Below, in pieces: positions 4,204-54,540 of a DNA stretch of 64,000 nucleotides. Position 1 is the stretch's first letter. Every line of letters starts with the position of its first letter. A program made the translations under genes and the position numbers. The DNA lies in NCBI RefSeq assembly GCF_988242995.1, contig NZ_OZ547043.1, one strand, 5' to 3'. The notes below the pieces were generated by a model. The model was not told the DNA's origin, searched no databases, and saw only the letters and a program-made list of their open reading frames with translations.

Positions 4204-4230
4204 AAAATAAAAAAGCCGGGGCGACCCGGC
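4204..4230 (-). terminator. intrinsic terminator of dinI
   Basis: GCCGGG-gcga-CCCGGC hairpin 4215-4230 followed on the minus strand by a U-run (plus A-run 4205-4214), 20 nt past the dinI stop. Confidence 0.55.
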
Positions 4231-4251: not shown

Positions 4252-4497
4252 TTATTCGCTGACAAACCAGTCATCGGCGCTTTCCCACGTTTCCTGGAGA
4301 ATTTCGCTAATGCGCTGTTTATCTTCTTTTGTCGCGCCAATAACCGATAAATTATTCGCTGCGGCATAACGTACCGATACGTGGCCTTCATTATCAGGAA
4401 ACGCATACTGAATACGGCGGGAAAGTTCGCCAGCCAGGGCGTCAATAGCCCCAGCTGGCAATGGAGAAGTTTTCGCTATGGTGACTTCAATTCGCAT
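4252..4497 (-). CDS. dinI: DNA damage-inducible protein DinI
   Basis: Track ORF 4252..4629 trimmed to internal ATG (plus 4495-4497): MRIEVTIAKTSPLPAGAIDALAGELSRRIQYAFPDNEGHVSVRYAAANN..., 81 aa as recalled for DinI. Confidence 0.93.
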   Translation of the reverse strand: MRIEVTIAKTSPLPAGAIDALAGELSRRIQYAFPDNEGHVSVRYAAANNLSVIGATKEDKQRISEILQETWESADDWFVSE

Positions 4498-4518
4498 AAT
4501 AGCCCCCTGTTGAATATA

Positions 4519-4534
4519 CTGGTTATTTATACAG
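4519..4534 (-). promoter_or_regulatory. LexA operator (SOS box) of dinI
   Basis: Minus strand reads CTGTATAAATAACCAG, matching CTGT-N8-ACAG; 22 nt upstream of the dinI start. Confidence 0.75.
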
Positions 4535-4570
4535 GTAAAATAACCTAATGACAACAGGAAGCTACGATTT

Positions 4571-5617
4571 TTATTGTTTAACGGACCAGCGTACCGTTTC
4601 CCCAGCGAGGAATGGCACCAGGGTGTCATCAGTCAGTGCGATGCTTTCAGCAACCTGTTGCTCTTCACGTACCAGTTCGATGAATGTGTCGTTGACCGGC
4701 AACCCGTAGAACTGCGGGCCGTTTACAGAACAGAATGCTTCAAAGTGCGGCAGAGCATTCATCTCTTCAAAGACGGTAGCGTAACTGCCCAGCGCGGTTG
4801 GGGCGTTGAAGCAGCCCGCGCAGCCGCAGCTGCTCTCTTTGCGATGACGTGCATGCGGCGCAGAATCCGTACCGAGGAATACGCGATTAAAACCGCTGGC
4901 GACCAGTTCACGCAATGCCTGTTGGTGAATATTGCGTTTGAGGATGGGTAGACAATACAGATGTGGACGCACGCCACCAACCAGCATATGGTTGCGGTTA
5001 AACATCAGATGCTGCGGAGTGATGGTGGCAGCCAGCCGTTCATTTCCGTTACGGACATAGTCGGCAGCATCTTTGGTGGTGATGTGCTCAAAAACGACTT
5101 TCAGCGCAGTCAGGCGCTGGCGCAGCGGTTCCATCACGCTTTCAATAAAGCGCGCTTCACGATCAAAAATGTCGATATCTGCATGTGTCACTTCACCATG
5201 CACCAGTAACGGCATACCGATTTTTTCCATGCGCTCAAGTACCGGCATGATTGCGTCAACTGACGTCACGCCGTGACTGGAGTTAGTAGTTGCGTTTGCC
5301 GGGTAAAGTTTTGCAGCGGTGAACACGCCTTCGTTAAATCCACGCTCAAGCTCATTAGGGTCTAGTGAATCTGTCAAATAACAGGTCATCAGCGGGGTGA
5401 AATCGTGCCCGGCAGGTACGGCGTCAAGAATACGCTGGCGATACGCCACGGCAGCCTCAACGGTGGTCACGGGCGGAGCCAGATTGGGCATTACGATAGC
5501 CCGTCCATAAATTTCGCTGGTATACGGCACGACAGTTTTTAACATGTCGCCATCGCGGAGGTGAAGGTGCCAGTCGTCTGGGCGGCGGATCTTTAATACC
5601 TGGGATGGTGCAGTCAT
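4571..5617 (-). CDS. pyrC: dihydroorotase
   Basis: Track ORF 348 aa; N-terminal metal-binding HxH motif ([10 protein letters not shown]); matches recalled PyrC. Confidence 0.95.
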
Positions 5618-5667
5618 TAATCTCTATGCTCCGGCTGAAGGGATGTTTTTGCCGGACACAAAGGATA

Positions 5668-24035: not shown

Positions 24036-24102
24036 GCCTATTTTGTATTGTTGGTTAGCAAGGATGCCATTCGATGAATTTTAATATGTTGATTCAAAGA
24101 TG

Positions 24103-38105: not shown

Positions 38106-38736
38106 GTATATCGTCATTGAGGGGCTGGAAGGCGCAGGCAAAACTACCGCGCGTAACGTGGTGGTTGAGACGCTCGAGCAACTGGGTATCCGCGACATGG
38201 TTTTCACTCGGGAACCTGGCGGTACGCAACTTGCCGAAAAGTTAAGAAGCCTGGTGCTGGATATCAAATCGGTAGGCGATGAAGTCATTACCGATAAAGC
38301 CGAAGTTCTGATGTTTTATGCCGCGCGCGTTCAACTGGTAGAAACGGTCATCAAACCTGCGCTGGCTAACGGCACCTGGGTGATTGGCGATCGCCACGAT
38401 CTCTCCACTCAGGCGTATCAGGGCGGCGGACGTGGTATTGACCAACATATGCTGGCAACACTGCGTGATGCTGTTCTCGGGGATTTTCGCCCCGACTTAA
38501 CGCTCTATCTCGATGTTACCCCGGAGGTTGGCTTAAAACGCGCGCGTGCGCGCGGCGAGCTGGATCGTATTGAGCAAGAATCTTTCGATTTCTTTAATCG
38601 CACCCGCGCCCGCTATCTGGAACTGGCAGCACAAGATAAAAGCATTCATACCATTGATGCCACCCAGCCGCTGGAGGCCGTGATGGATGCAATCCGCACT
38701 ACCGTGACCAACTGGGTGAAGGAGTTGGACGCATGA
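38095..38736 (+). CDS. tmk: thymidylate kinase
   Basis: Track ORF 213 aa, P-loop GLEGAGKTT; overlaps the mltG 3' end by 11 nt. Confidence 0.95.
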
Positions 38737-48919: not shown

Positions 48920-49055
48920 TTTTGGTATGACCAATGCACCATTCATGTTATTCTCATTAGCGAAGAACATTTTCATTGCTGTAACCTGTTGTTAATTAAG
49001 AGCTATGTTAATAACCATTAATTAACAATTGGTTAATAAATTTAAGGGGGTCACG

Positions 49056-50423: not shown

Positions 50424-50444
50424 TAGGCCTGATAAGACGCGTTA
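50424..50444. repeat. left half of a REP palindromic unit split by the IS insertion
   Basis: GCCTGATAAGACGCGTTA at 50427-50444 pairs with AGCGTCGCATCAGGC at 51880-51894 to reconstitute a canonical REP. Confidence 0.75.
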
Positions 50445-50452
50445 TGAACTGC

Positions 50453-51355
<903 letters not shown>

Positions 51356-52021
51356 AGGAGATGCTCCTGCATGGCTTTCAGATATGCATTTTCTGCGCGA
51401 AGATAACGCAGCTCATTCTTCATCTCTTCCGGCGTCATGTTTGCCTCGTTTTCATGGGTATCATCAGAACGGGTCATGCTTTTCTCCTTCCTGCGCCTGA
51501 TAAAGGCCTCATTACCAGATTTGCGGTAGCCTTTTATCCAGTTTTTAACCGTGTTGTGGCTGGGAATGTTAAACCGGGCAGCTACCCGGGGTAGAGACTC
51601 AGAATGCCCGAGAGCATAAAGAACCACGCAAAGTTTATCTTCAGGAGAATAGCTACGCTTGTGTCTGCAATCCAGTGCCCGAGGACCGTGAAGAAGAAAA
51701 AGATTAATCCAGTGTGAGAGGCTGGTGTGAGAAAGTTGAAAGAGTTTTGCCGTAGAAATGATGCCTGCATGACCAGCCAGGTAATGATTTACAGCGGCAA
51801 GTTTTACTTCAAATGAATGTTTCATAAACTGCACCTTCAGATGTCAGATTATGTCCAACATTTGGGGTGCAGTTCATTAAGCGTCGCATCAGGCATTCCT
51901 TCAGACTCCTCCGAATCCCTAAGTATTTCCAGCCATTCCCGCGCTTTTCATCTTCTGTCTGATAGCTGCTTTTCTCCTTCGCTTGCATGATTGGCATAAC
52001 AGCAAAGAAGGAGGTGTTCCC

Positions 52022-53779: not shown

Positions 53780-54500
53780 CTGCTGATTTTTTCCCCGCGA
53801 CATGCCGTGTCGCGGGGATTTTTGTGCACAGAAAACCCCCAGCTAGGCTGGGGGTTCCGGAAAGCTTTCAGCTTTGAGCCAGTTATTAAAACCCCTTTTG
53901 ATTTGTTAAAACACTTTGCGGTCTGGCAACTGCAAGTGTCAAACAAGAAATCAAAAGGGGGTCCCAATGGGGAACGAAAAGAGCTTAGCGCACACCCGAT
54001 GGAACTGTAAATATCACATAGTTTTTGCGCCAAAATACCGAAGACAGGTGTTCTACAGAGAGAAGCGTAGAGCAATAGGCAGTATTTTGAGAAAGCTGTG
54101 TGAGTGGAAAAGCGTACGGATTCTGGAAGCTGAATGCTGTGCAGATTATATCCATATGCTTGTGGAGATCCCGCCCAAAATGAGCGTATCCGGCTTTATG
54201 GGATATCTGAAAGGGAAAAGCAGTCTGATGCTTTACGAGCAGTTTGGTGATTTGAAATTCAAATACAGGAACAGGGAGTTCTGGTGCAGAGGGTACTACG
54301 TCGATACAGTGGGTAAGAACACGGCGAAGATACAGGATTACATAAAGCACCAGCTTGAAGAGGATAAAATGGGAGAGCAGTTATCGATTCCCTATCCGGG
54401 CAGCCCGTTTACGGGCCGTAAGTAACGAAGTTGGATGCAAATGTCAGATCGTGTGCGCCTGTTAGGGCGCGGCTGGTAAGAGAGCCTTATAGGCGCATTT
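53780..54500 (+). mobile_element. IS200-type insertion sequence (IS200/IS605 family); ends approximate (about +/-25 bp)
   Basis: Contains an IS200 TnpA ORF, a 5' hairpin with flanking T-runs (53793-53817) and an RBS-sequestering stem-loop (53893-53959); the bhsA-ldtC gap is about 790 bp against a much shorter gap recalled for K-12. Confidence 0.8.
53967..54425 (+). CDS. tnpA: IS200 transposase TnpA (HUH/Y1 single-strand transposase)
   Basis: Track ORF 53916..54425 trimmed to ATG 53967: MGNEKSLAHTRWNCKYHIVFAPKYRR... 152 aa, near-identical to recalled IS200 TnpA. Confidence 0.92.
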   Translation: MGNEKSLAHTRWNCKYHIVFAPKYRRQVFYREKRRAIGSILRKLCEWKSVRILEAECCADYIHMLVEIPPKMSVSGFMGYLKGKSSLMLYEQFGDLKFKYRNREFWCRGYYVDTVGKNTAKIQDYIKHQLEEDKMGEQLSIPYPGSPFTGRK

Positions 54501-54506
54501 GAAAAA

Positions 54507-54540
54507 CCTCCGGCTATGCCGGAGGATATTTATTTTTATC
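54507..54540. terminator. bidirectional hairpin terminator next to the ldtC 3' end (probably the native bhsA/ldtC terminator)
   Basis: CCTCCGGC-tat-GCCGGAGG hairpin 54507-54525 with an A-run before and ATATTTATTTTTA after. Confidence 0.55.

Follow-up and report, generated by a model that had tools for sequence, protein, structure and literature searches.

What controls dinI in this strain, and does the short palindrome upstream of the gene serve as its LexA operator? The stretch of DNA analysed here (the window, 64,000 nt at its full length) is a segment of E. coli chromosome that runs from trhO to nagK, in which dinI is flanked by pyrC and bssS. An earlier note had placed an SOS box with an AT-rich core on the minus strand at 4519-4534, ending 22 nt before the dinI ATG. 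Direct reading confirmed the sequence, strand and coordinates of this site: the plus strand reads CTGGTTATTTATACAG, the reverse complement of which is CTGTATAAATAACCAG, and 21 nt separate the 16-mer from the ATG (4497), with its final base at -22. A gap of 73 nt separates the pyrC stop codon (4571-4573) from the dinI ATG and contains the box, whose N8 core, ATAAATAA, is indeed 100% A+T. The note had also matched the site to CTGT-N8-ACAG, and this needed correction, as the right half-site is CCAG, not ACAG, leaving one mismatch to that pattern. The site does fit CTG-N10-CAG, with CTG at 4534-4532 and CAG at 4521-4519 of the minus strand as inverted half-sites 10 bp apart, and nine of the ten spacer positions are A+T. 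As a 20-mer, it agrees with the consensus TACTG(TA)5CAGTA at 15/20 positions and departs from it at the other five.

The K-12 dinI operator TTACCTGTATAAATAACCAGTATAT (PMC3009722 Table 4) is identical to the window at all 25 nt. The distance to the ATG and the flanking pyrC and bssS genes are also the same as in K-12, and operator and promoter show no difference. The strain is itself not K-12; the window most resembles genomes such as Ecol_316, though without being collinear with them. The K-12 dinI SOS box is reportedly included in the list of Fernandez de Henestrosa et al. (2000). The gene downstream of the box is dinI: its protein matched Pfam PF06183 with 102.1 bits (cutoff 24.2) over all 63 profile positions, and E24, E69 and D76, the residues that matter for RecA-filament stabilisation (PMC9926225), are all present in the 81-aa translation. 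DinI binds in the groove of the RecA filament (PMC9926225). The features of the locus are collected below.

Features of the dinI locus, in coordinates of the window
Feature	Position	Strand	Basis
16-mer core CTGTATAAATAACCAG with CTG-N10-CAG half-sites	4519..4534	-	read directly
LexA operator (SOS box), 20-mer ACCTGTATAAATAACCAGTA	4517..4536	-	PWM score, K-12 identity, conservation
-35 hexamer TTGTCA of the dinI promoter (predicted)	4549..4554	-	best hexamer pair in gap
-10 hexamer TATAAA, wholly within the LexA box (predicted)	4526..4531	-	best hexamer pair in gap
Shine-Dalgarno AGGGGG, 5 nt before the ATG	4503..4508	-	read directly
dinI coding sequence, 81 aa + stop, the regulated gene	4252..4497	-	ORF; RefSeq dinI, WP_001217754.1
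dinI intrinsic terminator, GCCGGG-UCGC-CCCGGC then U-tract	4205..4230	-	terminator scan

Simple patterns gave little help in deciding whether this palindrome stands out. Exact CTGT-N8-ACAG was absent from the window, and with one mismatch allowed the pattern occurred 17 times against 19 expected, which is not significant on its own. CTG-N10-CAG was found 25 times against an expectation of 14.7 from dinucleotide shuffles, a count that 0/100 shuffles attained; this excess is probably a side effect of the abundance of CTG and CAG trinucleotides (codons). By inspection, dinI alone among the 25 matches has an A+T-rich spacer, the others having at most about 6/10 A+T. Since bare consensus patterns cannot separate the site from chance, we used a weighted matrix instead. 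We took the 18 E. coli LexA boxes of PMC3009722 Table 4, removed dinI to leave 17 for training, built from these a symmetrised weight matrix and a Berg-von Hippel heterology index (HI), and scanned all 64 kb. With this matrix, trained without dinI, the dinI 20-mer scored 21.65 bits with an HI of 6.81. The published heterology index of the dinI box is reportedly approximately 6.2. The 17 training operators span 13.7-29.0 bits, and the dinI box falls inside this range, ranking 11th of the 18 known sites. The exact tail probability of its score is P = 3.4e-8, with 0.002 such sites expected per window, and none of 200 windows simulated with a first-order Markov model attained it (mean of the maxima 11.5 bits, top 18.3 bits).

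The earlier note had further described this as the only clear LexA box it found in the window, to be checked by a position weight matrix scan of the whole. That scan returned no additional or better box, and the dinI site led all others by 12 bits. The runner-up, at 38255-38274 inside tmk, scored just 9.6 bits (HI 13.8), below the weakest training site and at a level attained by 148/200 random windows. When the scan was confined to intergenic DNA (6.4 kb), the next best site was one of 6.4 bits in the rne-rluC gap, with neither CTG nor CAG. No site above -7 bits was found upstream of mfd, and none above 0.2 bits upstream of bssS. The ndh gene is a putative SOS gene in a study of Salmonella, with a box at 157 bp and an HI of 12.0; nothing comparable to that box was found in this E. 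coli window. We rejected a candidate at 49001-49020, 35 nt upstream of ndh, which scored 6.3 bits and lacks both CTG and CAG; nothing better was found upstream of ndh. The dinI box is the only recognisable LexA operator in the 64-kb window, and none was seen at any other gene, the DNA-metabolism genes mfd, holB and tmk among them.

We then enumerated all pairs of -35 and -10 hexamers on the minus strand of the pyrC-dinI gap. TTGTCA-17 nt-TATAAA was clearly the best pair, matching at 10/12 positions, and is predicted to be the only good sigma-70 promoter in the gap. An automatic promoter scan called no minus-strand promoter there; it missed this one because it required a T at position 6 of the hexamer, and the dinI -10 ends in A. 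The predicted transcription start, approximately 7 nt past the -10 hexamer, would fall at the 3' edge of the box. At the other end of the gene, the 3' UTR is only 37 nt long to the end of the terminator stem. An Rfam search found no match at the dinI promoter or 3' UTR.

This arrangement suggests how the site would work. In an undamaged cell, a LexA dimer would occupy the CTG-N10-CAG palindrome at 4517-4536 and cover the -10 hexamer and the predicted start. Because the palindrome contains both of these elements, bound LexA would block RNA polymerase from the promoter. After DNA damage, RecA-ssDNA filaments would stimulate LexA self-cleavage and free the operator. The resulting dinI mRNA of approximately 300 nt would consist of a leader of about 21 nt, the 81-codon ORF, the 37-nt 3' UTR and the intrinsic terminator, and the DinI made from it would feed back on RecA filaments. 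For this strain, we infer both the precise start of transcription and repression by occlusion. On this arrangement and the further evidence given below, we consider the site to be almost certainly the operator at which LexA controls the chromosomal dinI gene of E. coli, acting by promoter occlusion. The sequence of the box, its significance, its overlap with the promoter hexamer and its conservation come from the present analysis, and LexA binding, induction and DinI function from the literature.

Electrophoretic mobility shift (Fig 3D of PMC5999292) and dissociation assays showed that the 20-bp E. coli dinI operator is bound by LexA in vitro (PMC5999292). The gene is listed as LexA-regulated with a known SOS box (PMC6590174) and is one of those that UV induces most prominently (PMC3009722). 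Ciprofloxacin increased the dinI transcript (log2 1.9 at 10 min, log2 3.6 at 50 min) and DinI protein as well (PMC11002266). The Salmonella dinI box lies 19 bp from the ATG with an HI of 4.0, and the gene was induced 22.8-fold by nalidixic acid (PMC8072944). In Klebsiella, the box of the orthologue overlaps the mapped transcription start site, and the LexA ChIP signal there falls after mitomycin C (PMC10907235).

Within E. coli, the box is kept almost without exception. An 86-nt query covering the promoter region was found in 5,425/5,426 complete genomes, 3,736 of them identical, and a shorter 36-nt query (the box with 8-nt flanks) was matched in 5,420/5,426, with 4,721 identical, 669 showing one difference and 30 showing two or three. 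The change that recurred in the variants sampled replaces A with G at the outermost base of the 20-mer, position 1, which the matrix weights only weakly. One strain carried A to G in the spacer, and an alignment of six E. coli alleles showed no change in CTG or CAG. In the 86-nt search, five of the 5,425 matching genomes had less than 80% coverage, among them ST2747, which has neither box nor dinI (L004 2496-2600). The deletion in ST2747, of approximately 516 bp, extends from the first base of the LexA box to 55 nt upstream of bssS, and leaves the bssS leader fused to the -35 region of dinI. The pyrC-dinI promoter region was also present in five records labelled as plasmids, which may be mis-assigned replicons or chromosomal fragments.

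Conservation extends well beyond the species. One scan of species-representative genomes covered 80 loci drawn from approximately 25 Enterobacteriaceae genera, the DinI proteins being 73-99% identical. Upstream of dinI, a box scoring 19.8 bits or more was found in 80/80 of these species, and the best site has both CTG and CAG in every one; in 78 of the 80 a box of 19.8-30.4 bits lies within 150 nt upstream of the gene. The distance from box to ATG is 18-21 nt in 76/80 species and exactly 19 nt in 65. Over the remainder of each dinI locus of approximately 3 kb, the best score had a median of 5.3 bits. When the 65 species with 19-nt spacing, a set chosen for CTG and CAG at these positions, were anchored on the ATG, information per column was 1.73 bits in the box and 1.48 bits in the -35 hexamer, against 0.42 bits in the spacer between them and 0.40 bits further upstream; T-34 to A-31 and A-29 were also invariant in this set. 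The box is an island of conservation beside an unconserved spacer. The TTG positions of the -35 hexamer are kept in 100%, 91% and 100% of loci, five of the six -10 positions are invariant across species and the sixth is kept in 95%, and the GGGGG of the Shine-Dalgarno is 98-100% kept. The orthologues of Salmonella, Citrobacter, Enterobacter and Klebsiella share the whole architecture with the window: a -35 hexamer, a 17-nt spacer, a box with the -10 hexamer inside it, and 19 nt to the ATG.

Some species depart from this spacing. In Trabulsiella (L042 1440-1500, and L043), an insert of approximately 42 nt separates box and ATG, placing the box 60-62 nt upstream. In Buttiauxella gaviniae (L071 1358-1485), the box is present and an insert of approximately 125 nt between it and the Shine-Dalgarno lengthens the leader; B. 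brennerae (L089) gave an identical scan result. The Buttiauxella insert is a dispersed repeat; E. coli genomes contain a median of seven copies at approximately 80-85% identity, which is consistent with an ERIC-like element.

The earlier note had called the site a canonical, intact SOS box. Intact it is; canonical is slightly generous for a box with 15/20 consensus positions that stands 11th of the 18 known E. coli operators and is the weakest among the 80 species. The Escherichia operators (L011-L013 and L030) scored 19.8-21.7 bits, against a family median of 27 (other species L014-L090). They are the weakest because they have C at both positions 2 and 15, a pair that occurs together only in Escherichia among the sampled species, other genera having at most one of the two; the version of the box in Citrobacter or Salmonella is AACTGTATAAATAAACAGTA. 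The operators of sulA, umuDC and sbmC share with dinI a CTG-N10-CAG palindrome lying over the core promoter, but at 23-29 bits they are nearer to the consensus, whereas dinI is of middling strength. With five of its 20 bases off the consensus and no weaker version in the family, the dinI box may, to judge from the sequence, give less tight repression than those of sulA or umuDC.

Homologues of DinI were also detected in 162 phage records. We sampled six phage dinI homologues, 33-50% identical in sequence, and found boxes of 23-30 bits upstream of 6/6. The spacing of the window is repeated in two of the six, SPN3UB and a Klebsiella phage, each with just one box at 19 nt from its ATG. An equal distance, 19 bp between box and ATG, is seen in the Gifsy-1/2/3 dinI copies of Salmonella (PMC8072944). 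Prophage dinI genes (Gifsy, lambdoid, Stx and P2-like) resemble the window in having a strong LexA box before a DinI-family gene. Unlike dinI in the window, the lambdoid and Stx phages have two boxes: mEp460 (L093 340-387) and an Stx1 phage (L094 340-387) carry tandem boxes at 13 and 41 nt, each of 20-25 bits. The P2-like phages (L095 and L096) also differ, with one box of 28-30 bits ahead of a small upstream ORF that stands between the box and dinI. In L095, this small ORF is annotated 'UV induction of prophage'.

The immediate surroundings of the box raise the question of whether dinI is its main target. The pyrC stop codon is just 16 nt from the dinI -35 hexamer (4549-4573), and the terminator scan found no intrinsic terminator from pyrC to dinI. 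Transcripts of pyrC probably extend into the LexA operator and dinI, and because no intrinsic terminator divides the two genes, part of dinI transcription could come from upstream of its own promoter and be independent of it. It could accordingly be proposed that the box mainly controls a neighbour, as a roadblock to read-through from pyrC or as a distal operator of bssS, instead of dinI. We judge this very improbable. Bound LexA could impede the pyrC transcripts that must cross the operator, but the box lies downstream of the whole of pyrC, and the pyrC promoter and the PyrC leader (Rfam, 5618-5667) are 1.1 kb away, so that pyrC expression itself is not regulated by the box. Control of bssS, which is downstream on the same strand, is unlikely given the strong dinI terminator and the 289 nt of its own upstream DNA that stand between. 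Furthermore, the 19-nt distance to the dinI ATG is fixed across genera, and in phages, where pyrC and bssS are both absent, the box still accompanies dinI. Less probable still, and scarcely credible, is a chance match in which an AT-rich -10 region has CTG and CAG on either side by accident and LexA plays no role: the one-mismatch pattern does occur at chance frequency, CTG-N10-CAG is common in the window and the central TATAAA would stay conserved anyway as a -10 hexamer, but the weighted score is far outside chance (P = 3.4e-8, 0/200 simulated windows), the CAG half-site lies outside the -10 hexamer, CTG and CAG are both kept at the best upstream site in 80/80 species, phage dinI homologues with unrelated flanks retain the full palindrome, and LexA binds this 20-mer in vitro (PMC5999292).

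The claim that the box is a LexA operator controlling dinI is thus supported by K-12 identity, by score, by overlap with the -10 hexamer and by the conserved spacing in the survey of species, where the box was present in 80/80. Two additions to this role seem to us unlikely: that LexA at this operator also acts as a roadblock to pyrC read-through, and that the double substitution in Escherichia adaptively tunes DinI expression to be earlier or leakier. If the roadblock were real, SOS induction would free both promoter-initiated and read-through transcription of dinI.

The dinI LexA operator is an already known, ordinary textbook site. Its presence here means that the strain keeps dinI under normal SOS control, and its value is a correct annotation and little beyond. 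The survey adds that the 19-nt spacing between box and ATG is nearly invariant in Enterobacteriaceae and in some phage copies, and that the Escherichia box is the weakest. Klebsiella has an sRNA derived from the dinI 3' UTR, DinR, the seed of which lies in a Klebsiella-specific stretch (PMC10907235). We rejected a DinR-type sRNA at dinI in the window on the grounds of this location of the seed and of a 3' UTR of only 37 nt.

Elsewhere in the window, the RNase E 5' UTR element and the SraB sRNA (Rfam; 27363-27699 and 29560-29728) are intact, as is the PyrC leader. Genes were placed by projecting each one onto the window. Gene order diverges from that of Ecol_316 beyond 24 kb through indels and an inversion, and no genome in the collection was collinear with 40000-64000 of the window. 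At 24037-24101, between flgL and rne, the window is without a GNAT-toxin / DUF1778-antitoxin pair of approximately 880 bp that is present in Ecol_316. An IS200-type insertion lies between bhsA and ldtC (53823-54533) and is absent from Ecol_316, the closest reference used; it contains an Rfam STnc490 RNA (53834-53957, 145 bits) and a Y1-transposase ORF (53916-54425). A copy of IS1397 (IS3 family) occupies the ndh-ycfJ gap at 50427-51894, in the orientation opposite to that of the Ecol_316 copy in the same gap, which suggests either independent insertion at the same site or inversion.
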